Counted from the first letter of the stretch, positions 30,873 through 48,860 are shown. The stretch is 64,000 bases of DNA from Calditrichia bacterium (GCA_050633245.1 JBOEGD010000009.1:64001-128000); one strand, 5' to 3'. Program-made: numbers and translations. The notes: generated by a model from the letters alone, not told the origin.

Positions 30873-31000
30873 TACCGGGAGCAAAACTCACTCGGCACTT
30901 CCTGTACCTCGCCCTACGGGCTGCCCATTCGAGTAGTGCAAATGTGCAATCCTGCACCTTTGTCAAACCCGCACTTGCTTGCCCATACTGGATTTTGAAT
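30873..31000 (-). pseudogene. Displaced 3' half of tRNA-Leu (att repeat) interrupted in the T-loop by a ~75-bp palindromic insert
   Basis: taccgggagcaaaactc [insert 30890-30964] aaacccgcacttgcttgcccatactggattttgaat is a degenerate direct repeat of 48777-48829. Confidence 0.75.
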
Positions 31001-31404: not shown

Positions 31405-31812
31405 TTATCGGTTTAGTTTCAGATCTAGTTGACCAGGCTCTTTATGTAAGTAAGCAAAAGATTGTGGAGGCTTAATTCCATATTCTTGTTCAATAGACAA
31501 TTGATCAGGATACTTTTTTGTCTTTTTAATCTTTATAGCATACCCAGCTTCTTTACCATCAAAGTAGCTCATGTAGTACTCTTTGCTAATCCCAGCATGT
31601 TCTTCTGTTGTTTGCCATAACTCATCAATATCAGAGTGAATTACATGATCAATTTCAAACTCACCTATAACTTTACTTATTGGAGCAGAAGCATACACTA
31701 CAACCTTATTCACGGATGGATTCTTAAAAAGAGATCTTCTAAATTCATACTTTTTTGAGCCATTGAAAATCTTCGTTGCAAATTCAGGTTTAATCGATAA
31801 AATAACTTTCAT
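31405..31812 (-). CDS. ASCH (PUA-like) domain protein
   Basis: ILSIKPEFA...IFNGSKKYEFRR, VYASAP...IGEF and PPQSFAY motifs; overlaps the upstream gene. Confidence 0.88.
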   Translation of the reverse strand: MKVILSIKPEFATKIFNGSKKYEFRRSLFKNPSVNKVVVYASAPISKVIGEFEIDHVIHSDIDELWQTTEEHAGISKEYYMSYFDGKEAGYAIKIKKTKKYPDQLSIEQEYGIKPPQSFAYLHKEPGQLDLKLNR

Positions 31813-33298
31813 CTGCTTTAGACTCCTTTAAGATCGTGTTAAAGTGATCTAATGTGAGGGGCTCAAACCCTCTTGGCGCACTATTAATGTCTTTAATGAT
31901 CCCAAGCTCGATCAATCTAGCTAAATTAATCTTATTAGGAAACGTTTGAACATAAAGAAAATTAACTATAAACGGAGGATGTTTTTTATTGTAATACCAA
32001 TGCTTTAGAAGTTCCTCATCTGTAAAGACGCTTCGCTTTCTGCAAAGTTCTAAAAATCGTTTTTCTGATGAAATATTATCATACATACTATCAACAATAC
32101 CAAGTGTTGTAATGACACTTTTATAGTACCCACCTGTTCTGTAGAAAAGAATTAAATCTCCTCGATTAAGGTCTCTATTAAATGAGCGAGAGATATATAC
32201 TTTTTGTAATGCGTTTCTATGTGGCTCATTCTCTATATAGTCATCAGGAGTTTCATTCGTTAAGACTGAATCAGGCAATAATTCCGTATGATATCTAGGA
32301 TAAATTGGTACTATGTAATTTGTATTATTTCGAGAAACAAATGGAAAAATAAGTTTGGGATTAGTCATGTTAAATGTTGGCGAAAAATCCCTTATAAACA
32401 CCTTTTCTGTACCATTACGAGTATTTTTTGTTCCCCAAAACACAAAGCCCCAATCCTCAAATAATTTCATTAACCTAATTTGATCTTCCCGCTTGTCAAA
32501 AATTGTTACATATATCTCATCTACTTTATAATTCTGAGCATTATCAAAGACTATCTTTAAGAATCGCTCACCCAACTTATATCCATTTGAAGTGACTTTT
32601 AATGTACCAATTTTTAATCTCTTCTTTGGCCTGAATGCGGGTTCAATATCCCCATAGCCTTCATTTTTATCTTCAACTTTGAGATATAAAAAGGCCCCAA
32701 TAGCATTATCTGTGTCACAGACATAGCATATTTCTCCTTCTTTTCTATTAAACCATTTTTCAAATTCTTGGTAATCTGTTTTGAATGAATCAAAGAATTG
32801 GTCTTGTAGATTTACTTCACCAAAGTGTTTTTTTCTAACAGCTAGAACTTTGTAATCTTTTAAATCAGGATTTTCCGCTGTTACCTTTTCAAGGTATGAG
32901 TCTATTTTATAGACTTTTTCAGATATTCCTAGCCGATCTGCCTTAGAGTGAATACCCCTGTCTTCTGTAATGATTAGGTCAACCCTACCATTATAGAGCT
33001 CCTTAATCAGGTCAGTATCAAACTTATCATTTTCTGAATTGTCGTATTCTCGGATTTGAGTTATCGCTTCTGAGTCATCTGAGAGTGTTCTCAAGGACTC
33101 ATAATTTTGTATCTTTATTGCCATCGTCTTTATAACAGACTCATTGGCGTGTCGCCTAATTTCAGTCATGGTATTTGGATGAACAATTTTAGTTGCACCC
33201 GTTTTATCAAGCCAATTAAATAATAAGCCTATATCTTGGTTTACTACAGTAACCGCTTCACGATGAATAATGATGTTTGTATCTAGTAGAATCCGCAT
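31790..33298 (-). CDS. PIN-GNAT-PUA(EVE/ASCH-like) fusion protein
   Basis: PIN: ILLDTNIII...LIITED; GNAT: LKIGTLKV...GYKLGERF...IYVT; C-terminal PUA-like IVPIYPRYH...KVYIS...GDLILFYRT. Confidence 0.82.
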   Translation of the reverse strand: MRILLDTNIIIHREAVTVVNQDIGLLFNWLDKTGATKIVHPNTMTEIRRHANESVIKTMAIKIQNYESLRTLSDDSEAITQIREYDNSENDKFDTDLIKELYNGRVDLIITEDRGIHSKADRLGISEKVYKIDSYLEKVTAENPDLKDYKVLAVRKKHFGEVNLQDQFFDSFKTDYQEFEKWFNRKEGEICYVCDTDNAIGAFLYLKVEDKNEGYGDIEPAFRPKKRLKIGTLKVTSNGYKLGERFLKIVFDNAQNYKVDEIYVTIFDKREDQIRLMKLFEDWGFVFWGTKNTRNGTEKVFIRDFSPTFNMTNPKLIFPFVSRNNTNYIVPIYPRYHTELLPDSVLTNETPDDYIENEPHRNALQKVYISRSFNRDLNRGDLILFYRTGGYYKSVITTLGIVDSMYDNISSEKRFLELCRKRSVFTDEELLKHWYYNKKHPPFIVNFLYVQTFPNKINLARLIELGIIKDINSAPRGFEPLTLDHFNTILKESKADESYFID

Positions 33299-34451: not shown

Positions 34452-35585
34452 CTACAACCTCCCCACCGGCGGCCGCTCTCTGGCCCCATCATCAGCCCGC
34501 AGCGCCTTGATAACCCGCTCCACCTGCGCCTCAAAGATCCTCTCATCCTTCTCCCACCCTCTGAAATCTGCCGCCAACCTCGAGCGCACCTGCGTCTTCT
34601 TTGCACTCTGCCACCCGTCTCCCAAGTAACCATCCAAGTCCAGTGGAATCAGTGAGAGCACCTTCTTCTTGCGCTCTCTAAACAGTTTCTGCTCCTTATT
34701 AAAGGCCGTCTCGATCTCATTGTCCACCCACCAGCTGGTCAGCGACTGCTCAGTGCAGCAAAGAAGAACCTTGTCCCAGCCCCGGATACCTCGATCGACC
34801 TGCTCAAAGATATCATCCCCTGGCAGCATCTGCTTCTCATCCAGCCAGCAGCGGATGCCTTTATCCTGGAGAGTGTTGTGCAGCCGGCGGGCGAAGTCTT
34901 TATTAGCATGGCTGTAGCTGATGAAGCATGAGTAGAATTGGATGGGGTAATCGTTGAGAATGTGATCAATCTTGTAGAGAATATCGGTGACTAGGTTTCT
35001 AGTGAGGTTTTTTTGATATAGCTTTGTTGCTTCAATTTCCCAATCCGAAAGGCCGCAGCCTCTAAGGAATTCTAGTGGAAGTGGACCACTGCGAGAAAGT
35101 GTTCTAAGGTCCAATGTGCACGGTCCAGTAAATTTACAGTGCTCAAGGTTTAAAGCCTTGCTAAGGTCAATGTCGCTAAATACTGTTTCATCTAGATTTG
35201 CATCACGCATATCTACAAAATCTAAGACTGTTTTAGAGAAAATCACACTCTCAAGGTTAGCATAAGTGAGATTTGATTGACTTAAATCAGCTGACTCGAA
35301 GTTAGCACCGGAAAACTTTGCTCCACTAAGGTTTGCATTTATACATTTTATAATCCTAAGATTAGCATCAACAAGAAAGGCCTGACTTAGATCAGCTCCA
35401 ATGAGGATTGCTCGAGGTATATCGGCTTGAATTAAATCTGCCCTGGAAAGGTTCGCCCCTTCAAGATTAACCCCGGTGAATTCAATTCTCCTCAAATCCG
35501 GCTTGACAATTGGTTCTTGAGATCGCCACTTATTCCAAACCTCAACACCCTGCTTCAGAATGTCCACGTGTTTTGGATTCGCCAT
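34452..35585 (-). CDS. Pentapeptide-repeat plus TIR domain protein (copy 1)
   Basis: A(N/D)LS repeats; TIR box CFISYSH...[11 protein letters not shown]...SWWVDNEI (putative catalytic Glu). Confidence 0.9.
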
Positions 35586-35743: not shown

Positions 35744-36142
35744 TTGGGATTAGGGAAATACAGGGTTATTTTTTACTCATCAATTGTAGTGAGGTTACTA
35801 ATTTTAGCCCCGTCAGATGATGAATATAATACGGCAAAACCCATTGATCCAGAAATTAGAGAATTGCAAGAAAAGAAGAAGAAAAAGGAAGCTGAATATA
35901 AATCTAAGCTTTCTGAACATGATCGTGGCGCTATTGACAAGCTAAAAGAAGATAAAGTGTTTAAGAATATGGTTCGCCTGGCGTTTATCCTCCCGATTCT
36001 TGATGCAATTTTCGCTGGTTATACTACCAGAAAATTAGGTTGGTTATCCGAAGGTATACTAGAATCGGTAAAGATAATTCTTGAAATTATTCCAGGTAGC
36101 CGGGAGGTCGCTATGGGGCGAGAGCCCCTGTCCCCGAATTAA
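35744..36142 (+). CDS. Hypothetical protein (possibly a 3' fragment)
   Basis: 132-aa ORF with a weak TTG start, closely followed by an RBS-led membrane ORF. Confidence 0.35.
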   Translation: MGLGKYRVIFYSSIVVRLLILAPSDDEYNTAKPIDPEIRELQEKKKKKEAEYKSKLSEHDRGAIDKLKEDKVFKNMVRLAFILPILDAIFAGYTTRKLGWLSEGILESVKIILEIIPGSREVAMGREPLSPN

Positions 36143-36163
36143 CCTGATTAGGAAGGTGACATT

Positions 36164-36433
36164 ATGAGTGCAGAGCAAGAGATTAGTATTAGGCAGGCTT
36201 TGAAGATTGCATTACTTATGATCATGGTGTTCTTCTATGCGGTATTGTTCGTTGCTCTCTTTGCAGCAATAACACGAGACATCATTGCCATACAATACGC
36301 AGAATGGTCTTCTTTGATTTTTGGAGGAGCGATTGCAATTGTGTTTTTTCGCAATAAGGGTAGAGTGTTTTACATTATAGCAGCAGGGCTCTGGGTAATT
36401 CTTTACATACTCCTAGAAGTTTTTTATTCCTAA
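36164..36433 (+). CDS. Small 3-TM hypothetical membrane protein
   Basis: GGAAGG RBS, three hydrophobic segments. Confidence 0.55.
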   Translation: MSAEQEISIRQALKIALLMIMVFFYAVLFVALFAAITRDIIAIQYAEWSSLIFGGAIAIVFFRNKGRVFYIIAAGLWVILYILLEVFYS

Positions 36434-36531
36434 AATCAGACCCTAGCGACGCTAACCGCCTCAATTCCCCTTGCATATTTCCTCACTCCTTCGTTTTTTA
36501 TATCACTCCCCCTCACTAAACCGGAATAGCT

Positions 36532-37602
36532 ATGTCCGAGAAGAAACCACCCAGCGAGACAGATCAGCTCCGAGAAGAACTTGAGGTGCAACAGGCTGAA
36601 CTCAAGAAGCTCAAAGAGCAACTCCAAGATCAGAAGAAGCAGCTGATCCAACAAGATCATCGTCCGCTTACTGTGCTTAAGAATTTAGTGGTTTCCCACA
36701 TGAATGAAGGTGCAAAGGACACTCGAGAGGCTTCCATAATGGCCGCCGGTAGTTTAGTTTATCGAAAACTTGCACAGCGAACGCGAGTAATTATTGGCGC
36801 AGGCCTAGTTGGAACTCTCATCGGCTTGGGTACTTTGTATGTCACCTGGTCAACACTTACCGAGCTGAAATCCCAGAATCAAGAGTTTATTAAGCAAAAT
36901 GAGTTGGTCACAAGCCAGAATAAGCTGTTTCAGCAGCAGATGGTCGATCAACAACGCTCAACCAATGCGCAGTTGCTTTCGGATATTCTTGCTGAAATTG
37001 AGGATGCAGAACGTGAGGTGAAAAAGACTATAAGGAATTTAGATGGGTATTGGAAACCTAGTCGCCAGCTCTTGTATCGAATTCACACTTCCGCGAGAGC
37101 CTTTGAAACAAATCATCAAGGTTCATATAATTATGAACGCGGTCAGCTATTGCAGGCGCTGGTAGATGCTAGAGTAAGATTTCCCCTTAGACCTAATCCA
37201 CTCTTTCGTAACGCAGATTTAAGGTTGGCTGATCTGAGAAATGCTAGCCTCTCATCCGTAGATCTACCTTATGCAAATCTACAGAAGTCACGACTTGATA
37301 ATACTGATCTAAGTCATTCAATGCTATCAGGGAGCGACTTAAGAATTGTTAATTTCTCTGGAGCAAATTTAATGCACGCTAACCTGTCAGGAGCTGATCT
37401 TGGAGAGGCTTATTTCTATGCTACAGATTTGCGAAACGTTCGTGGTCTTAAAGTTGAACAATTATCTAGAGCTGCAACACTTTATTTGGCACAGATTAGT
37501 GATACAATGTTATTGAATCCATTAAGAAAGTACTGGCCCAATTTGTTTTTGCACCCAGATTCCGTTACAGATTTTTCTCCTTGGTGGAAGAAACCTCAAT
37601 AA
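36532..37602 (+). CDS. Membrane-anchored pentapeptide-repeat protein with coiled coils
   Basis: N-terminal coiled coil, TM (IIGAGLVGTLIGLGTLYVTW), Q-rich coil, ADLR/ANLS repeats. Confidence 0.8.
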   Translation: MSEKKPPSETDQLREELEVQQAELKKLKEQLQDQKKQLIQQDHRPLTVLKNLVVSHMNEGAKDTREASIMAAGSLVYRKLAQRTRVIIGAGLVGTLIGLGTLYVTWSTLTELKSQNQEFIKQNELVTSQNKLFQQQMVDQQRSTNAQLLSDILAEIEDAEREVKKTIRNLDGYWKPSRQLLYRIHTSARAFETNHQGSYNYERGQLLQALVDARVRFPLRPNPLFRNADLRLADLRNASLSSVDLPYANLQKSRLDNTDLSHSMLSGSDLRIVNFSGANLMHANLSGADLGEAYFYATDLRNVRGLKVEQLSRAATLYLAQISDTMLLNPLRKYWPNLFLHPDSVTDFSPWWKKPQ

Positions 37603-38052: not shown

Positions 38053-40182
38053 CTATGTATATTGCTCAAATGGCCCCATACTGTTCAAGAAGTCATCAAA
38101 GTTACTCTCCAGTTGAGAATCAGATTTTCTAATCACAGCTTTATCTGTAATAATCAGGTCGATTAAATCTGGTTTAGATAAATATGTATTCTCTAGTTTA
38201 TCCTGATAAAATTCTGGCAATTGAGTTAAGCTTGGGTAATTCTTGTATGACTCACCAACAACAACGACAAATACCTCACTTCCATTTTCCTGCGCAAAGT
38301 TCTTCAAGGATCGCAACCTGCTAGCATCTCTTGGTGGATGAAATACCCAACGGTCATTGTCAAAACCTTCTGCACCTATAACAACCATAATTTTAGTATT
38401 CGTTAGTACATTCTTGTTATCTGGAAAAGCATCTTTTAGATCAGGTAGAGAGTAGTCTTCTTTTAATTCAAACATCATTAAACGCGCTTCAAATGATTCC
38501 TGGTCGTCTGACTTCATGACAAACAGCTTAGGGGGTATTCTCTTGTTAATTGATTCTGCGTCTTTAAAGACCACGGTCTTAAGCATTTCTAACACTGTTT
38601 TGCTATATCCATGAGTAACCAAAACTTTATCGTTTTTATCTTCCTGCTTCTCAATAGAGCTCAGCCAGGAAGAATACTCTTGAGAGAATTTCTCGACAAT
38701 CCTCTTTCTATTTATATTTATAACCACATTGGTGCTACCGTAAAGCTCTGAAAGAAGCGTTAGCTCATTTGTAGCTCGTTCTTTGTTTATGTCAAATATA
38801 TTGGGAATAGAATTGTCCTGAATCCTTTCCAATAAGGTTCTTGTAGTCCTTAGCTTCGTATTATCTGTTTCAGTTGCACAGAGCCTGAGCGCAGCGACAT
38901 GTAAATCAAAGCCGATGTAGGCTTTTTGTTTATGAAATAGGTAGCGTAGTTGCTCAGAGACTATTGCAAAGACATTATACTTCTCTTGTTCCACCCTTTC
39001 AGTCATTGCTTGATTTGCAACAAACGAAATGGCTCGAACATAGTTAATTAATGAGCTTGAAGCCGACGCATTCGGAATAAAGTCTAATATATAGTTATTA
39101 AGATCCGAATATTTTAAAACCTGCAGCTGGAAAGAGGTTCTGCTTCGAATTTTCTCATGGTCTCTATTGTTTTTGCGAAGAAGCTTTACTATGCTCTCTT
39201 CAAATATTTCCTCTCCGTAGTCACCACGAATTCCATGCAGAAGTATTCTCCAGTTTTCAATATATTTCTCCATACGATTCTTATACATATCTGGACTAAA
39301 CTGAATAATATGATCGCAAAATCTACGAATTGGGATTCCACATTCATCTGCAGCAAAACATTTCATAATCTTCAAACGCTGAATGGAGCTATGACTTTTA
39401 CGGGAAAGCTTGTCCAGCTTTTCCACCGCTGCCAAAATTAGTTTTCGCTCTTCGACTAAAAATTGCAAAAGCTCTGTCCTGGATTTTGCTTTCAGCAATT
39501 TCTGATTAGCAACATTTTGTAAGAAAAGTGTATTTCTGTCTTCCAGAAACGAATTGCCAAGTTTCCATATCTCGTAACTTATTATTTCAAGAATCTCTGA
39601 CTTAGCCCACCCCCTGATTGTTGTCTTGGCATATTCTTCAGGAGAGACTCTCCCAAGAAGGCGCAAGGTGCAAAATGTAGCACCGAGCAAAATTGAAAAA
39701 AGTAAAGATACGGCTATTAGAGCGCTCGCAAATAAACTTGAGTCCAGCGCATTTAACAAAAAGCTATAGAGTGGAATAAACGCTATGATGATAGTGGCTG
39801 CTGCAATAAATGTGATGGTATTACCCAGAGCCAAAGCTCGGATCATTTGCTGAGATCGGATTTTTAATATCCAGGATAAACTTGGGCGAAAATATTCTGA
39901 AGGCATTGCTATTCTTTGCTGAGAACTCGGTCGATTTTTAAATCGATTCCAAGCTGCTTCAATATCTGTATCCGGATCATTGTTCACAGGATTGGTAATT
40001 GCACCAAACAAAATCTCCCCCGACATTTGTTCCTCATAAGCGCATATCAATTCCGCCTTATATTCAGGATACTTTGCTAAATAGTCCTTAATATCGGGAT
40101 TATCTCCGTTGAGTTTTCTAACTGCAATACCATCCAAAACTTCAGTAATCAAGTTTTCAACTTCTAATTTACTATCACTCAT
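38053..40182 (-). CDS. 2-TM protein with N-terminal anti-sigma-like helical motif and C-terminal eIF2B/IF-2B-like domain
   Basis: C-terminus VLVTHGYSKTV...VVIGAEG...VVGESYK...PDLIDLIITD parallels the IF-2B family order; ATGA overlap with the sigma gene. Confidence 0.7.
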   Translation of the reverse strand: MSDSKLEVENLITEVLDGIAVRKLNGDNPDIKDYLAKYPEYKAELICAYEEQMSGEILFGAITNPVNNDPDTDIEAAWNRFKNRPSSQQRIAMPSEYFRPSLSWILKIRSQQMIRALALGNTITFIAAATIIIAFIPLYSFLLNALDSSLFASALIAVSLLFSILLGATFCTLRLLGRVSPEEYAKTTIRGWAKSEILEIISYEIWKLGNSFLEDRNTLFLQNVANQKLLKAKSRTELLQFLVEERKLILAAVEKLDKLSRKSHSSIQRLKIMKCFAADECGIPIRRFCDHIIQFSPDMYKNRMEKYIENWRILLHGIRGDYGEEIFEESIVKLLRKNNRDHEKIRSRTSFQLQVLKYSDLNNYILDFIPNASASSSLINYVRAISFVANQAMTERVEQEKYNVFAIVSEQLRYLFHKQKAYIGFDLHVAALRLCATETDNTKLRTTRTLLERIQDNSIPNIFDINKERATNELTLLSELYGSTNVVININRKRIVEKFSQEYSSWLSSIEKQEDKNDKVLVTHGYSKTVLEMLKTVVFKDAESINKRIPPKLFVMKSDDQESFEARLMMFELKEDYSLPDLKDAFPDNKNVLTNTKIMVVIGAEGFDNDRWVFHPPRDASRLRSLKNFAQENGSEVFVVVVGESYKNYPSLTQLPEFYQDKLENTYLSKPDLIDLIITDKAVIRKSDSQLESNFDDFLNSMGPFEQYT

Positions 40183-41126
40183 GTCAACTCCCTATTGAAA
40201 GATAGGTTCGTTAATGATGCAAGTTCGCTGACGATTAATTGCCTACTTTGCGAGGCGGCAATTTTGTTGCCGGCTATTTCTCTATATGTCCTTTTACTCT
40301 GAAAACGTTGCTGAATTAGTTTCGCCTTTCTTGGGCTTGTTCTTGCGAGAATCTTCGCCAAAATCATTTTGTCCTGTTCATCGAACCACTTAAACCTATA
40401 TCCTTCTTCAACGATTATTGAATGCAGATACGGGCCTAGTTTTTCCCCTAATGGGTGGTGGGCAATAAACTCTTTTATAGATGGGGGTTTGCCAGCCTGC
40501 TTCCTTTCACAAAAACTATCAAGGGTATCGGTTATAATGAAATCACCGATTTTCTTAAGACATCTTGCATTTCGCTTGCGTAATCTAACTGCTCCATTCA
40601 AGTCACCTATCTTTTTTGCAATCTCATTGTAGGGTAAACCATGTAAAAATCGTAGCTCAATAAGCTCTGAATCCTCGGGTGAAACAACCCTTGTTATATA
40701 ATCCCAGGCTTCATTCTCAATGAGTTTGATATCTATTGATTTTTCAAACCCTCCAATGTCTTCAATAAGTGGTATTTTCGTGAGTGAGTTCTTCATCTTG
40801 GGATATATTGATGAGAACGGCTTCGGTAAGCGATTATTGAGGTTAAAGTAATCTACACATTTGTTGCGGGCGATCTTGAACAACCATCTTTCAAATGACG
40901 CCCTTATTTGATCTTCTGTATCTTTTTGGTGCGGAGTAAAGGTTGCTATGTTAATAAAGGCCGCAATAAGCACATCCTGGGAAACATCTTCAACTATAGC
41001 TATTGGAATACCCAGATATCTTACAAAGTTGTTTAACCTCTTATAATAATGTTTAAAGAGAATCTCTTTGCTCTTTACATTGCCTCTTCGACAGCCTTCC
41101 AATATTGAGCTAAAGCCTAGTCCCAT
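40179..41126 (-). CDS. ECF sigma factor with ~120-aa C-terminal extension
   Basis: VEDVSQDVLI...WLFKIARNKCVD (region 2); LIELRFLHGLPYNEIA (region 4); extension ending in a second region-4-like LIQQRFQSKRTYREIA; AGGAGG RBS. Confidence 0.82.
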   Translation of the reverse strand: MGLGFSSILEGCRRGNVKSKEILFKHYYKRLNNFVRYLGIPIAIVEDVSQDVLIAAFINIATFTPHQKDTEDQIRASFERWLFKIARNKCVDYFNLNNRLPKPFSSIYPKMKNSLTKIPLIEDIGGFEKSIDIKLIENEAWDYITRVVSPEDSELIELRFLHGLPYNEIAKKIGDLNGAVRLRKRNARCLKKIGDFIITDTLDSFCERKQAGKPPSIKEFIAHHPLGEKLGPYLHSIIVEEGYRFKWFDEQDKMILAKILARTSPRKAKLIQQRFQSKRTYREIAGNKIAASQSRQLIVSELASLTNLSFNRELT

Positions 41127-41272
41127 AGGAACCTCCTGTTAAACCCCAAACTGAAAAAGCGTCCTCCAAACTCCCTGTTTAAAGAATACCTGTTACCTCT
41201 AGATTTATATTATTTCATCCTGATCTATAATTGTGCGTGATGAAAGAGTTGATTACCCTAATTTTGGTTACT

Positions 41273-41378
41273 AACTGAAAAGAGGTCAGAAACGTGACAT
41301 ACTTTTGAAAAAAAGTGAGAAAAAATATCTCATCATGATCTCCCATTCTTCTGTCACATTCTTCTCCCCTTTAGGGTT
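41273..41378. promoter_or_regulatory. Back-to-back ECF-like promoters TGTCAC-N17-RGTT
   Basis: Minus strand: TGTCAC (41299-41294)-17 nt-AGTT towards the sigma gene. Plus strand: TGTCAC (41352-41357)-17 nt-GGTT towards 41412. Confidence 0.45.
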
Positions 41379-41411
41379 TATACAGTAAATAGCCCAATAA
41401 AGGAGATCTAT

Positions 41412-41693
41412 ATGTTAGCTGATCCAAATTTTCAAAGTATTCTGGCTGGCGCATTAATGGGAGGGTTTTGTGTGTTCGCAACAGTATTCGCTCGACTCAT
41501 TGTAAAGATCCTGGTCGGTGCTCTTATCGTGACTCTGTCTTTTGTAGGCTACAGCCAGGGAGTTGTAGGTCTAGAGAAGCTATTTAGTTCAATAGTGGCC
41601 AGCCTGTTGTATCACATTTATTTTTCTGGCGGGTTTGGATTTACACTGTTTGCACTCATTGCTCTTGGCTTTACTAACAAGTCAGATCCGTAA
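41412..41693 (+). CDS. Small 3-TM membrane protein
   Basis: AAGGAG RBS; almost entirely hydrophobic; followed by a hairpin. Confidence 0.7.
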   Translation: MLADPNFQSILAGALMGGFCVFATVFARLIVKILVGALIVTLSFVGYSQGVVGLEKLFSSIVASLLYHIYFSGGFGFTLFALIALGFTNKSDP

Positions 41694-42068: not shown

Positions 42069-42578
42069 TTGGTAGGTTTTATGATTATTAATGAGCTCGT
42101 AATCGGGATTATTGGCGGTCTAATCGCTTCTCTGATCGTAGGAACGACTCTTCTATTGTATAAAAAAATTATTTTCCCCAAAATCGAAGAGATTATGTAT
42201 AAAGGAGGCATCGATTTCAGCGGAGAATGGGAGTATTCTATAGAGGATAAAGATATAAAAGGGAATAAGGCCGTTCGAGATTTTTCACTCAATCTTGAGC
42301 AGCATGGGTTCAGGATATCTGGAAATTTTATTATTAACAATAAATTTGATGATGGGTCGAAAATCCTGTCTGTTTACAATGTTACTGGCATTGTTGCAAA
42401 TAATTTTATTACTGCACATTACCTTCCAAAGTCACGGAAACGTAATGGTGCTGGTACACTTCTACTAGAGATTGGCAAGGGTGGTAAAGAACTCTTGGGA
42501 ATTAATACAGGCGTAAGTGTTGAGACTGGGAAGGTGAAGATTCGAGATAACTTTATTCTTCTAAGGAAAGGATTTTAA
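42069..42578 (+). CDS. TM plus beta-barrel protein (Cap15/SMODS-associated beta-strand-rich-like, tentative)
   Basis: N-terminal TM (GIIGGLIASLIVG), DFSGEW lipocalin-like motif, alternating beta strands, GxGxL...LxG. Confidence 0.55.
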   Translation: MVGFMIINELVIGIIGGLIASLIVGTTLLLYKKIIFPKIEEIMYKGGIDFSGEWEYSIEDKDIKGNKAVRDFSLNLEQHGFRISGNFIINNKFDDGSKILSVYNVTGIVANNFITAHYLPKSRKRNGAGTLLLEIGKGGKELLGINTGVSVETGKVKIRDNFILLRKGF

Positions 42579-42626: not shown

Positions 42627-43880
42627 TCACAACCTCCCCACCGGCGGCTTCTCCCGCGCCCCATCATCTGCCCGCAGCGCCTTGATGACTTGCTCCACTT
42701 GGGCCTCAAAGATTGAGTCATCGTTCTCCCAACCTCTAAAGTCTGCTGCCAGCCTCGATCGAACCTGCGTCTTCTTGGCGCTCTGCCAACCATTGCCCAG
42801 GTAGCCATCCAAATCCAGCGGAATAAGCGAGAGCACCTTCCTTTGGCGTTCCCGCATCAGCTTCTGCTCCTTATTGAAGGCCGTCTCAATCTCGTTGTCT
42901 ACCCACCAGCTGGTTAGCGACTGCTCAGTGCAGCAAAGCAAAACTTTGTCCCAGCCCCTGATACCACGATCGACCTGTTCAAAGATATCATCACCGGGCA
43001 GCATCTGCTTTTCATCCAACCAGCATCGAATGCCTTTGTCCTGGAGAGTGTCATGCAGCCGGCGGGCAAATTTCTTATTAGCGTGGCTATAGCTGATGAA
43101 GCAGGAGTAATACTGGACTGGGTTGGCGATACGTATTTGAGCAATCTTATAGGTAATATCTATCAACTGTCCATCAGACAAGTCTTTTTGGTAGAGCTTG
43201 GTAGCCTCTATTTCCCAATCAGAAAGGCCACATCCTTTGAGGAACTTCTCTGGTAGAACGCCACTTCTTGAGAATGTGCTGGTGTCCAACATGCTTGGCC
43301 CTTTATGTATACATGTTTCAAGGTTTTTGGTGTTTGAGAGGGCTATATTTAGAAGTTTTGTCTCATTCAAGATAGACTCATAGAGCGACGCGTTGCTTAA
43401 TTTAGAATAATGCAGGTTAGCCCAACTGAGGTCGGCCATACTGAGGTTGGCACTTTCAAGATTGATCCCTTTAAGATTGGCGCCACTAAGGCTGGCGTTT
43501 TTTAGATTAGCACTGCTGAAGTCAGCATCTTCGATGTTAGCCCAACCAAGGCTGGCGCCTTCAAGGTTTGCTAAAGAGAGATTAGCCTCGTCAAGATCGG
43601 CTGCGTGGAGACTGGCTTTTTCGAGGTTGGTTTTAACAAGGTTGCTCTCTACAAGTATGGTTTCCGTGAGCTTTGCTTTTTTTAGGTTACTCATACTAAG
43701 GTCGGCCCAGAGGAGGTTCGCTTCACTGAGATTGACGTCTTCGAAATTAACCTCTATCAGCTTGAACCTTGTGAGGTCAGCCTCTATAAGATCCGGCCTC
43801 ACATCTGGATTTTCCTCCCGCCACTTATTCCAAACCTCAACACCCTGCTTCAGAATGTCCAAATGCTCTGGATTCGCCAT
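42627..43880 (-). CDS. Pentapeptide-repeat plus TIR domain protein (copy 2)
   Basis: Same architecture as 34452-35585, with a nearly identical TIR domain and a longer repeat region. Confidence 0.9.
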
Positions 43881-44387: not shown

Positions 44388-46610
44388 GTGAATATGTGCA
44401 AACACACCTATACCAGCGATAGTGGAAAAGAGTCTCATTCCATGGGCAACCAATGCCCCCATCCAGAATATTACAAAAAAGGTCATGCAACCGCCATAAG
44501 CGAATCAGTAGATGGTCTGGTACCTGTTCTTCCAATAGATAGTAATGGGGTCTGCCTCTTCCATAGTAAGGATGTCATCTGGAAACGCAAGAACGGTTTC
44601 AAGCAAATTTTTCTTCAACTTGTGCAGTTCCTCAATAATGACAGCATCTTAAAATGTTGTGATTTTCGAGAGTTTGTATTTGTCGGCGATGAGCTTACAA
44701 TCAAAAATAATATCGAAGACTATGTACTCCAAATTACGAATACAGTATTCCAGAAACCGGTGTACTTCACGGGCGCATCCTTTATCGATTCATTCGAGCT
44801 TAACGATGTCAGTTTCCAGGATGGTGCCACGTTTCGCAGTACAACCTTCACCCAAGACCTGCAAATAATAAATACTCGCTTCTTTGGGCTCGAGTTTAGC
44901 AACACGACGTTTATGCAGATCGCCTACTTCATTAAGGTAGAGTTCCTGAGCTACGCTCTATTCATAAACAATCGGTTTACCGGAAAGACAGGCGTGTATA
45001 CGGTCAAGTTCGTGGACTCGTGTTTTCGGGGAATAACCGACTTCTCTGGCTCAGCCTTCACTTTGGGAGGTGAATCGACAGTTGGCTTTATAAAAGTTCA
45101 GTTTGAAGATTTCACGGATTTTGGGCGTACCCAGTTCCACTGCCAGGTCATCTTCAACGAAGTATCCTTCGCATTTAACACTGAGTTCATTGATACTTCG
45201 TTCGAAACGGTTAGCTCCTCAGCGCGTTACCGCGGAGCTGCTGTCGAGTTCAAACAAATCGAAGTTATGAAGAATGTAATCCTCACTTTCAAAAGTACGG
45301 ATCCCCAGAAAAGGCTGTTCTCCCATAATGTTCAATTTAGCTTTAAAGAAAAGCTGGATGGGATTATTCGGTTTGAGAACGTTAACTTCAGCCACATCGA
45401 TTCGGCTTCTAAGGATCGGTTAGTGCGGCTTGCAAAGTCAGGGAATGTCGAGATTGGGACAGGGTGCATAAAGTATCGTTTTCAAACCGACATTCGAACG
45501 GTCGCTGTGAGTCATGACAATGCTCCACTTGTTTTGGAGCTCTGCCAGACATTCACCAACTACTTCACGGTGAGCAACGGCCTCAATTTGGGCTTTGAAA
45601 TCGTTGCGCGTGACGAAGCGAAAGTAAGCTTTTTCTACTTTACTGACGAAAACATTTCAGAAGCCACCTTTCACGCACGCCTGGCGCATACGGAACAAAG
45701 TTTGTGGAATCTGCTTAGATATCGTTCCGATGAGCAGCTCAAAGCCTTGGAAGCAGCGTCAGCAACGGCAAAGCCCTCTATCCGGGAAAACGCGATCATT
45801 AACGCAGTCGACGGTATCTCGGCACTTCTCGGCACATTCTTCCGTGTAGGAATGAGAATCGCCTTGGGAACCTGGAAAGAGGCTGACACAAAAGCACTCT
45901 TGGGTGCCGTTCAATTTAATAGCGATGGTGCCGAGAACCGCGCACTGAGCTTGCATCGAGTCTTCACAGAAAATTACACCGCAACTACGCTCTTAGATAT
46001 CAACCGTCAGCAAAACCGGCTATTGTCCCCAATGGTTATGGATAGTCGCTACATGGACACTCCCAAGAAGGTCAAAATTCTTTTTTTGGGTGCCAATTCC
46101 TCGAGTTCACCACTGGGCCTTGACTTAGAAGTCAAGCAGCTACAAACCAACCTGAAGCTTGCCAAGGAGCGCGACACCTTAGAGTTTAGCCAAGAGTGGG
46201 CTATAACTGTCGATTCGTTAATGCAGGCGATGCTTGATGAATCACCGACGATCGTTCATTTCTCGGGCCATGGCAACGAATCGGGTATTATTCTTCAGGA
46301 TGGAATGGGCGAACCCAAGGTCGTGTCGACAGACGCCTTATCTAACATGTTCAAACTCTTTAAGGATAGACTTCAATGCGTTGTACTGAACTCATGTTAC
46401 TCAAAGCCTCAGGCACAGGCGATCCGGATGCATATCCCACATGTCATCGGCATGAGTTCAAGTATTCCTGATCCGGCGGCAATTGCATTTTCCACGGGAT
46501 TCTACAAGGCTGTAGGGGCGGGAAAGGATATCCCATTTGCGTTTGATCTGGGAAAAGCGGCCATTCAATTGGAAGGTATTTCCGGTGAAAACATCCCTGT
46601 CTTACTATAA
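44388..46610 (+). CDS. Pentapeptide-like (F-rich beta-helix) protein with C-terminal CHAT caspase-like protease domain
   Basis: CLFH N-cap; xxFxxxxF repeats; KILFLGAN...IVHFSGHG...VVLNSCYS (His/Cys dyad)...FSTGFY. Confidence 0.85.
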   Translation: MNMCKHTYTSDSGKESHSMGNQCPHPEYYKKGHATAISESVDGLVPVLPIDSNGVCLFHSKDVIWKRKNGFKQIFLQLVQFLNNDSILKCCDFREFVFVGDELTIKNNIEDYVLQITNTVFQKPVYFTGASFIDSFELNDVSFQDGATFRSTTFTQDLQIINTRFFGLEFSNTTFMQIAYFIKVEFLSYALFINNRFTGKTGVYTVKFVDSCFRGITDFSGSAFTLGGESTVGFIKVQFEDFTDFGRTQFHCQVIFNEVSFAFNTEFIDTSFETVSSSARYRGAAVEFKQIEVMKNVILTFKSTDPQKRLFSHNVQFSFKEKLDGIIRFENVNFSHIDSASKDRLVRLAKSGNVEIGTGCIKYRFQTDIRTVAVSHDNAPLVLELCQTFTNYFTVSNGLNLGFEIVARDEAKVSFFYFTDENISEATFHARLAHTEQSLWNLLRYRSDEQLKALEAASATAKPSIRENAIINAVDGISALLGTFFRVGMRIALGTWKEADTKALLGAVQFNSDGAENRALSLHRVFTENYTATTLLDINRQQNRLLSPMVMDSRYMDTPKKVKILFLGANSSSSPLGLDLEVKQLQTNLKLAKERDTLEFSQEWAITVDSLMQAMLDESPTIVHFSGHGNESGIILQDGMGEPKVVSTDALSNMFKLFKDRLQCVVLNSCYSKPQAQAIRMHIPHVIGMSSSIPDPAAIAFSTGFYKAVGAGKDIPFAFDLGKAAIQLEGISGENIPVLL

Positions 46611-48733: not shown

Positions 48734-48777
48734 ACAAAGCCCGGTAAGATAATCGGTTTTATCTTACCGGGCTTTGT
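48734..48777 (-). terminator. Long hairpin immediately 3' of the tRNA
   Basis: 19-bp perfect inverted repeat acaaagcccggtaagataa/ttatcttaccgggctttgt. Confidence 0.7.
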
Positions 48778-48860
48778 ACCGGGAGCGGGACTCGAACCCG
48801 CACATAGTTGCCTATACTGGATTTTGAATCCAGCGCGTCTACCAATTCCGCCATCCCGGC
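48777..48860 (-). tRNA. tRNA-Leu(CAA)
   Basis: Reverse complement gccgggatggcggaattggtagacgcgctgga-ttCAAaa-tccag...gcgggttcgagtcccgctcccggta; long variable arm; CCA not encoded. Confidence 0.96.

Follow-up and report, generated by a model that had tools for sequence, protein, structure and literature searches.

What could place an extracytoplasmic function (ECF) sigma factor under the control of a protein built like a translation regulator? This question is raised by a gene pair found in a 64,000-nucleotide stretch of DNA from a Calditrichia bacterium (GCA_050633245.1, JBOEGD010000009.1:64001-128000; hereafter the window), which belongs to a 6.3-Mb genome that is 97% complete and whose nearest named relatives are Calditrichaceae/Calditrichota metagenome-assembled genomes (MAGs). 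The pair encodes an ECF-type sigma factor and a 709-residue membrane protein (the partner) that ends in a module resembling the alpha subunit of eIF2B. ECF signalling is usually regarded as envelope-sensing, and the IF-2B fold is familiar as an enzyme in methionine salvage and in the archaeal AMP pathway, and as the regulatory core of eIF2B, in which the alpha subunit senses sugar phosphates. The explanation that we favour is that the partner is a membrane anti-sigma factor whose ligand-sensing IF-2B-fold module controls the sigma factor, and we give this whole chain a probability of about 0.45. Its parts differ in strength and are taken up in turn below.

A coupled pair of genes and the topology of the partner

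The two genes lie on the minus strand (Table 1), and the stop of the sigma gene overlaps the start of the partner gene in an ATGA (...ttgacATGAgtgat...). The partner has its own Shine-Dalgarno sequence, GGGAG, 8 nt 5' of its ATG, and AGGAGG precedes the ATG of the sigma gene. The partner gene is present in a single copy in the genome. Upstream, a divergent gene preceded by AAGGAG encodes a protein of 93 amino acids with hydrophobic segments at residues 7-52 and 69-87, for which a word-based homologue search returned only the query. An earlier reading, made from the sequence alone, had described an ATGA-coupled ECF sigma factor and 709-aa protein with two transmembrane segments, plus a divergent small membrane-protein gene, and the open reading frames (ORFs), their overlap and the hydropathy profiles agree with that description.

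Hydropathy places the two transmembrane segments of the partner at about residues 122-145 and 151-176 (peaks of 2.37 and 2.42), separated by an uncharged five-residue loop (LDSSL) and with four Lys or Arg residues on each flank, and the AlphaFold2 (AF2) model described below has helices at 122-145 and 150-178. Such a pattern points to a hairpin whose two ends are cytoplasmic, so that the N-terminus and the IF-2B-like module both face the cytoplasm. Between the hairpin and the module lies an all-helical domain (residues 177-353) that is modelled mostly with a predicted local distance difference test score (pLDDT) above 90. It is well conserved (C289 in 50, S296 in 52 and P297 in 58 of 63 relatives), and Pfam scans of the partner and of its relatives gave no family match for it.

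Table 1. Position in the window of the genes, domains and sites discussed in the text.
Feature	Position	Strand	Basis or remark
Partner gene	38053-40182	-	ORF, 709 aa; N-terminal putative sigma-binding segment, transmembrane hairpin, helical domain, IF-2B-like domain
Partner residues 1-95, putative anti-sigma segment	39898-40182	-	Predicted complex; cytoplasmic, helical, no Zn motif
Partner residues 122-176, two-helix transmembrane hairpin, N-in/C-in	39655-39819	-	Hydropathy and AF2 model
Partner residues 177-353, conserved all-helical domain	39124-39654	-	AF2 model and alignment; motif IP.RRLCDH..QFSP
Partner residues ~354-704, IF-2B-like module	38071-39123	-	Fold and profile; helical N-domain and Rossmann-like C-domain, eIF2B-alpha-like pocket
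ECF-type sigma gene	40179-41126	-	ORF, 315 aa; ~120-aa C-terminal extension
Sigma region 2, residues 23-95	40842-41060	-	Pfam Sigma70_r2, 1.2e-8
Sigma region 4, residues 149-187	40566-40682	-	Pfam Sigma70_r4, 3.1e-7
Sigma extension, residues 197-225, copy of the partner N-terminal helix motif	40452-40538	-	BLASTP
Sigma extension, residues 263-285, second region-4-like segment	40272-40340	-	BLASTP; no Pfam hit above threshold
Promoter-like TGTCAC-N17-AGTT	41273-41299	-	Faces the sigma operon
Promoter-like TGTCAC-N17-GGTT	41352-41378	+	Faces the 93-aa gene
Divergent gene	41412-41693	+	ORF, 93 aa; hydrophobic; possible sigma target
PIN and EVE-like protein	31790-33298		502 aa; PADLOC candidate model PDC-M11A end to end, E = 5.5e-213
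Pentapeptide-TIR paralogue	34452-35585		377 aa; TIR_2, 1.7e-23
Pentapeptide-TIR paralogue	42627-43880		417 aa; TIR_2, 1.7e-23
CHAT protease protein	44388-46610		740 aa; C-terminal CHAT, Pfam 6e-7, PADLOC 'chat' 3.7e-12

The C-terminus of the partner has the IF-2B fold

Direct searches with the partner told little. No Pfam family was matched at E <= 0.1 and no PADLOC model at all, a word-based homologue search returned only the query, and two similarities were marginal: the NCBIfam IF-2B alpha model at residues 498-538 (E = 0.037, with 13.3 bits where 339 are required) and the archaeal eIF-2B-like PDB chain 1vb5 at residues 479-549 (E = 0.78). An exhaustive HMMER search disclosed a large family in several phyla, with 173 representatives of 50%-identity clusters at E <= 1e-3 (of which 120 attained 1e-10 or better and 38 attained 1e-30 or better), mostly of 600-790 aa; only three of ten members looked up had a name in their source, and every one of these was 'hypothetical protein'. 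We aligned 63 near-full-length members from the best 150 of the 173, leaving out fragments and split or partial matches. The resulting profile matched eIF2B beta (8.4e-4), eIF2B alpha (1.1e-3), 1vb5 (5.7e-3) and ribose-1,5-bisphosphate (R15P) isomerase (0.09) in the PDB.

With the same alignment, AF2 modelled the partner at a pLDDT of 83.7 and a predicted template-modelling score (pTM) of 0.82, residues ~100-690 being confident and 1-100 not. Foldseek found 71 PDB matches to this model at E <= 1e-3, the best of them an eIF2B-alpha chain (6o9z_G, E = 7.8e-8, probability 1.00), and the ~35 matches listed were all eIF2B alpha, beta or delta chains or R15P isomerase (3a11, E = 1e-7). The alignments extend over 320-385 columns and so take in both lobes. 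A poorer model of the partner, that of the Atlas itself, independently led to IF-2B clusters, and its residues 354-704 align to eIF2B-alpha with a template-modelling (TM) score by target of 0.72. The motifs THGYS (523-527), GAEG (603-606), ESYK (644-647) and LIITD (676-680) occur at these positions, in the order given by the sequence-only reading, and in the alignment of the family profile with human eIF2B-alpha THGYS pairs with THAYS, GAEC with GAEG, AEsYK with AESFK and HP.G with NKIG, at an E value of only ~1e-3.

Several results weigh against this assignment. The Foldseek TM-scores by target are moderate (0.46-0.60), with root-mean-square deviations of 7-12 A. The Pfam IF-2B family (PF01008) does not match the partner, a search of the genome with it gives only two canonical paralogues, and among the 63 relatives it matches just two (best E = 7.4e-4). 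Comparison of the family with an alignment of 28 relatives' MtnA by hhalign was not significant (E = 0.03, probability < 2%), and neither was comparison with the genome's own MtnA and second IF-2B paralogue (E = 0.018 and 0.019), although these runs nonetheless gave the expected register (GAE with GAD, TH.YS with TH.AS). Since two independent structural routes and two sequence routes all lead to the IF-2B family, the agreement is more than chance, and we regard it as nearly certain that the C-terminus has this fold, as had first been read from its motifs. The family forms a branch that has diverged far and lies closest to the eIF2B-alpha/R15P isomerase side.

The two canonical paralogues of the genome are an MtnA with THC and GAD (L027, 1462-2499) and a soluble protein of 311 aa with THSAS and GTD (L028, 1471-2406 on the minus strand of G000:C7), the gene of which directly adjoins a response-regulator-like gene. 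The latter may be another non-isomerase bacterial eIF2B-like protein. Two PF01008 matches were likewise found in 27 of 31 related genomes.

A conserved pocket without the isomerase residues

In the R15P isomerase of Pyrococcus, the catalytic pair is reported as Cys135 and Asp204, with Ser137 and Lys240 binding the 5-phosphate and Asp204, Asn214 and Lys215 the sugar, and the same account gives Ala or Gly in place of the Cys in eIF2B alpha (PMC5789824). The fructose-6-phosphate pocket of human eIF2B-alpha is described as holding the sugar by A129, Y130, G196, E198 and N208 and the phosphate by R132 and K234 (PMC8187479). We mapped these positions through the alignment of the family profile with human eIF2B-alpha and counted their occupancy over the 63 relatives. 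A129, at the place of the isomerase Cys, corresponds to G525 (58 Gly, 2 Asp and one each of Ser, Glu and Ala; no Cys), Y130 to Y526 (55 Tyr, 8 Phe), R132 to K528 (41 Lys, 12 Arg), G196 to G603 (62 Gly), E198, at the place of the isomerase Asp, to E605 (62 Glu, 1 Asp), N208 to H615 (54 His) and K234 to K647 (62 Lys). All seven positions are conserved in the family and six are identical to eIF2B-alpha or conservatively changed, N208 being represented by a conserved His. By its spacing from Cys135, the invariant S527 (63/63) is the counterpart of the phosphate ligand Ser137. No columns of the protein are more conserved than these counterparts of the ligand-holding positions. Conservation also extends to the motifs STSGS (about residues 369-375) and KQRAHPGFDLH (418-428), which may contribute the other lobe of the pocket.

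The replacement of the catalytic Cys and Asp and of the NKIGT motif, and the likeness to eIF2B-alpha, all proposed beforehand, were borne out by these alignments: the Cys of MtnA and R15P isomerase appears in none of the relatives and the Asp in one, and HP.. pairs with NKIG. The pattern of conservation is that of eIF2B-alpha and suggests a sugar-5/6-phosphate or a nucleoside-monophosphate-like ligand. On balance we consider it more likely than not that the pocket binds a ligand and is not an isomerase, with much less assurance than the fold itself commands.

Two other explanations bear on this point. The module could be an enzyme with another chemistry, for example a Glu/His-based isomerisation of sugar phosphates at the membrane, the sigma factor being merely co-transcribed with it or regulating it. 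E605, H615, E644 (53/63), K647 and S527 are conserved to a degree expected of catalytic residues, the best-known bacterial and archaeal members of the fold are enzymes and, as described below, most members of the family stand without a regulator as partner. 'Non-catalytic' is for this reason a qualified word here, and other chemistry through the conserved Glu, His and Lys is conceivable. We nevertheless hold an enzyme to be unlikely, since neither of the known catalytic residues is kept, a trait shared with the non-enzymatic eIF2B-alpha, where the conserved residues only bind ligand, since the transmembrane hairpin, the long helical linker and the PilZ fusions of two members look like signalling, and since the complex prediction reported in the next section supports sigma binding. 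The PilZ domains (c-di-GMP-binding) form the C-termini of P0018 (residues 665-764, E = 4.2e-5) and P0068 (681-752, E = 1.3e-8), and would fit a signalling role for the family.

About equally unlikely in our judgement is that the module binds no small molecule and serves as a platform for oligomerisation or protein recognition, the anti-sigma factor then being governed by a protein partner or by clustering within the membrane. IF-2B proteins are described as forming dimers and hexamers, and eIF2B beta and delta as showing no ligand density (PMC8187479); aIF2Bs are reported to bind aIF2-alpha (PMC4787765), and the best PDB match of the family profile is eIF2B beta. The sugar-ring residues E198 and N208 are, however, given as lost in beta and delta, whereas here the Glu is kept and the Asn has become a conserved His. 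The phosphate-binding positions are conserved too, a pattern that is hard to explain without a ligand.

The N-terminus of the partner as a putative anti-sigma segment

By its domains, the sigma factor belongs to the ECF type, as it has regions 2 and 4 only and matches the ECF models of Pfam (Sigma70_ECF, 6.6e-6) and NCBIfam (TIGR02937, sigma70-ECF, 7.9e-19, its 67.9 bits exceeding the cut-off of 42.9). When it was folded together with partner residues 1-100, both chains without alignments, the predicted complex reached an interface score (ipSAE) of 0.67 in all three runs, the best of three controls scoring 0.00. At least 56% of the contacts are common to the runs, and the pLDDT of the partner segment is at least 70. 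Of 78 solved complexes, 51 attained this mark, as did 2 of 108 mismatched pairs. The main predicted interface is with region 4 (sigma residues 138-194), and further contacts are made with region 2 (17-54) and with residues 226-233. A dual interface with sigma regions 4 and 2 is described for class I anti-sigma domains (PMC7406223).

These predictions have to be set against a number of findings. Solved complexes of sigma and anti-sigma factors exist, so that success in the test may reflect likeness to them. The partner N-terminus matches no anti-sigma model of Pfam or NCBIfam, residues 1-100 hold one Cys and no His and lack the Zn-binding motif HxxxCxxC, and the segment has a low pLDDT as a monomer. 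By phmmer and jackhmmer it found only itself among 152 sequences, and thus shows no similarity to the N-termini of other members, including the sigma-linked pair described below. With all this weighed, the model makes it fairly likely that the N-terminus binds the sigma factor, and the partner is a probable cytoplasm-sensing anti-sigma factor with a new sensor domain. The anti-sigma role assigned in the sequence-only reading has support in silico only, from the predicted complex and from the recurrence of the pair in all three loci of the Calditrichota clade.

The sigma factor itself carries an extension (residues ~196-315) that matches no Pfam family and for which a word-based homologue search returned nothing but the query; an AF2 model of the sigma factor alone, made without an alignment, was too poor to judge it (pLDDT 51.9). 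In single BLASTP comparisons, sigma residues 197-225 resembled partner residues 11-39 (12 of 29 identical, E = 5e-8), and residues 263-285 resembled the factor's own region 4 at 148-170 (10 of 23 identical, E = 4e-5). Over the 6.3 Mb of the genome, the sigma 197-225 segment was the only other match to the partner N-terminus, although a weak one at that scale (E = 0.3). The order of these parts, region 4 and motif followed by a region-4-like segment, the stop/start and the motif again, suggests an ancient tandem duplication of the gene junction in which the first copy became fused in frame. A trace of this duplication was not found at the DNA level; one 24-nt direct repeat was considered and set aside as chance, being out of register with the protein similarity. 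Since the partner's copy of the motif sits on region 4 in the predicted complex, the copy in cis on the sigma factor could compete with it, or it may be a relic.

The 285-bp intergenic region upstream holds two copies of TGTCAC-N17-RGTT on opposite strands, one facing the sigma operon and the other the 93-aa gene. These are the only two in the 64 kb, where 0.16 would be expected, and one of 100 shuffled sequences reached two. Such an arrangement would fit an autoregulated ECF sigma factor with one divergent target. That the motif rests on two copies counts against it, and it did not occur upstream of the two homologous sigma operons (L004 and L005). Promoter-like sites found by a scan for the sigma-70 consensus were no commoner than in shuffled sequences (10 against 12.2 expected). 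The upstream regions of the homologous operons have in common the 12-mer CGGCATTATATA, at ~5055-5075 in L004 and ~4525-4545 in L005.

Relatives of the pair

Homologues of the partner were found in two of 60 other related genomes searched, both from the same taxonomic family and with 33-34% identity, and across the phylum real matches occur in three of 86 genomes, including that of the window. In both homologues a gene of ~195 aa lies directly upstream on the same strand and matches an ECF model over its whole length, one with 43.5 bits (TIGR02937, 2.5e-11) and the other with 33.3 bits, which is below the cut-off of 42.9 (3.4e-8). An ECF-type sigma gene stands directly upstream of the partner in all three loci of the Calditrichota clade. 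The three proteins, and a fourth (P0003), have 79-106 extra residues at the N-terminus ahead of the core, most members having fewer.

The three sigma-paired genomes come from one taxonomic family and are not independent, and the sigma factor of the window is not BLAST-similar to the other two (E = 0.83 and 6.5), for which reason the pairing may have arisen, or been replaced, more than once. We also scanned 20 neighbour proteins, the nearest larger ORFs only, at 11 homologous loci, and at seven of the eight loci outside the Calditrichota clade no sigma factor was found among the neighbours scanned. All these points tell against the favoured explanation. The claim that the pair recurs holds within the clade and fails at the seven loci, so that the pairing is no general trait of the family, which indicates that the core function of the family needs no sigma factor. 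The exception is a Gemmatimonadota MAG (L009, 313-5953) with an ECF sigma gene (PF07638, 1.6e-60) two genes upstream on the same strand; there, a Ser/Thr kinase-TPR protein and the sigma factor precede a 753-aa family member with a Cys-rich N-terminus. This is a second and different association of the family with an ECF sigma factor. It appears that in the Calditrichota clade an N-terminal head was added to the family core and wired to a sigma factor.

Both Calditrichota homologues have an SLT transglycosylase gene on one side and an SRPBCC-type gene on the other. A metagenome contig (L016, 4523-6752) bears a near-copy of the G001-type operon in which two overlapping ORFs, of 208 and 553 aa, stand in place of one family member, owing to either a frameshift or an assembly error.

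Our searches of the literature gave no link of IF-2B domains to sigma or anti-sigma factors, although the supplementary anti-sigma domain tables of PMC7826278 and PMC7406223 may hold one. The main text of the ECF re-classification paper nowhere mentions IF-2B, eIF, isomerase or Calditrich.

The genomic island and the TIR genes

The pair lies in a stretch of low G+C content (0.35-0.44, against ~0.45-0.49 elsewhere), an island of ~17.8 kb bounded by a tRNA-Leu(CAA) gene (48776-48860) and by a 38-nt partial copy with 87% identity (30963-31000). On the island are the PIN and EVE-like protein, the CHAT protein, which has a weak pentapeptide-like N-terminal part, and the two pentapeptide-TIR paralogues, whose 5' and 3' ends repeat at 84-86% over 300 and 174 nt and whose repeat cores differ in length. 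The earlier statement that two TIR genes flank the pair is correct. Also between them, at 35744-37602 and 42069-42578, are small hydrophobic ORFs of 132, 89 and 169 aa, the last without a Pfam or PADLOC family, as well as a pentapeptide-repeat protein of 356 aa whose N-terminus is a coiled coil.

This setting invites the idea that the family core, that is the hairpin, the helical domain and the IF-2B sensor, is a ligand-gated membrane effector of an anti-phage-like kind, to which the sigma-binding head would be secondary. An architecture of two transmembrane helices with a nucleotide/sugar-phosphate type of sensor is in keeping with it, as is the company of PDC-M11A, TIR and CHAT genes on a tRNA-bounded island. 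Single family members gave matches to PycTM (0.0039), a holin-like family (0.0028) and STING_LBD (0.041), and the Saprospiraceae homologue is followed, 165 nt downstream, by a gene for a 231-aa caspase-domain protein (L008, 7926-8621; Peptidase_C14, 6.6e-17). The matches are weak and near noise, however, the partner matches no PADLOC model, the neighbours at other loci look like housekeeping genes (sulfatase, FKBP, OEP, lysine oxidase), and the SLT transglycosylase and SRPBCC-like genes beside the two other Calditrichota copies are not defence genes. We regard this explanation as improbable. Assignment of the pair to defence systems by family was likewise rejected, there being no PADLOC match and no conserved defence neighbours.

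Least probable of all is the proposal, made in the sequence-only reading, that ADP-ribose-type products made by the flanking TIR proteins are what the sensor recognises and that it turns on transcription in response: the pair does lie between two such genes, pocket residues that would suit a ribose-5-phosphate moiety are retained and eIF2B-alpha is reported to bind AMP and GMP (PMC4787765), but a TIR domain occurs in none of the 20 neighbour proteins at the 11 homologous loci, the two closest homologues included, and, the TIR genes being a local duplication on the island, their adjacency may be an accident of insertion. The TIR context is a local feature of the island, and a TIR product bearing ribose-5-phosphate would be compatible with the pocket on chemical grounds, a match that gains no support from comparison between loci.

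A tentative mechanism

If the partner is an anti-sigma factor with an IF-2B-fold sensor, its first ~95 residues would hold the sigma factor through regions 4 and 2, and the hairpin would anchor it to the inner face of the membrane with both ends in the cytoplasm. The long helical domain would join the hairpin to the IF-2B module, in which the isomerase pair has been lost and the pocket would suit a sugar-5/6-phosphate or a nucleoside-monophosphate-like ligand. Binding might close the two lobes, as it does in the enzymes of the fold, or shift the oligomeric state, and the helical domain would relay the change, so that the hold on the sigma factor would be released or strengthened. Once freed, the sigma factor could read the two mirrored TGTCAC-N17-RGTT sites and transcribe both the operon that encodes it and the divergent gene for the 93-aa membrane protein.

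A wider scenario that brings all strands together is more doubtful. Membrane sensors of the eIF2B-alpha type would be widespread in bacteria, and in the Calditrichaceae the N-terminal head would have wired them to ECF sigma factors, making this the first IF-2B pocket to control transcription; the fused duplicate of region 4 and anti-sigma helix on the sigma factor would act as a built-in decoy, and the ligand would possibly bear ribose-5-phosphate, TIR products included.

Should the proposed chain be true, a bacterial membrane branch that keeps the pocket and not the catalytic pair would mean that the conversion from enzyme to sensor took place in bacteria too, and its coupling to an ECF sigma factor in one clade would give ECF signalling an input from metabolites in the cytoplasm. 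The family, with its 173 clusters, has no model in Pfam, NCBIfam or PADLOC, and a profile made from the 63-sequence alignment would serve to annotate it. The pair is small and could potentially be used as an orthogonal, ligand-controlled sigma/anti-sigma switch.

Comparison with known systems

With TIR-based signalling of the Thoeris-like kind the pair shares neither a conserved co-occurrence with TIR genes, as judged from the 20 neighbour proteins at 11 loci, nor a PADLOC match for the partner. To R15P isomerase and MtnA the partner is related by its fold and by the Ser and Lys positions that bind the 5-phosphate; it differs from them in lacking equivalents of Cys135 and Asp204, in the non-significant profile comparison of its family with MtnA, and in standing in a genome that has a canonical MtnA of its own.

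The sigma factor recalls those of the ECF41, ECF42 and ECF56 type, whose regulatory C-terminal extensions are treated in the reviews PMC8999054 and PMC7826278, in having ~120 additional residues after region 4. Here, in contrast, the extension is without Pfam family and without homologues in a word-based search, its parts are a copy of the motif from the partner N-terminus and a second region-4-like segment, and the sigma factor additionally has a separate anti-sigma-like partner. This partner is in turn like anti-sigma factors of class I (of the RseA, RskA, ChrR and RsiW type) in that its gene directly follows, and is coupled to, that of an ECF sigma factor, in having ~95 helical, cytoplasmic residues at the N-terminus ahead of its membrane helices, and in the predicted contacts with sigma regions 4 and 2. 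Unlike them, it has no sequence match to anti-sigma models and no Zn motif, its two transmembrane helices place the sensor in the cytoplasm and not in the periplasm, and that sensor is an IF-2B fold.

The closest resemblance is to eIF2B-alpha, with which the module shares the two-lobed fold of helical N-domain and Rossmann-like C-domain, the motif order TH(A/G)YS, GAEG and AE(S)(F/Y)K, the change of the isomerase Cys to a small residue and of the Asp to Glu, and a pocket in which four residues are identical (Y, G, E and K) and two conservatively replaced (A to G and R to K). The partner differs in being bacterial and too divergent for PF01008, in its fusion behind a transmembrane hairpin and a helical domain of ~175 residues, in having His for N208 and HP(R)G for the NKIGT loop, and in standing without the partners of the eIF2B complex, linked to a sigma factor and not to translation. 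What would be new, then, is an ECF sigma/anti-sigma pair with a cytoplasmic IF-2B-fold sensor drawn from an undescribed bacterial family.

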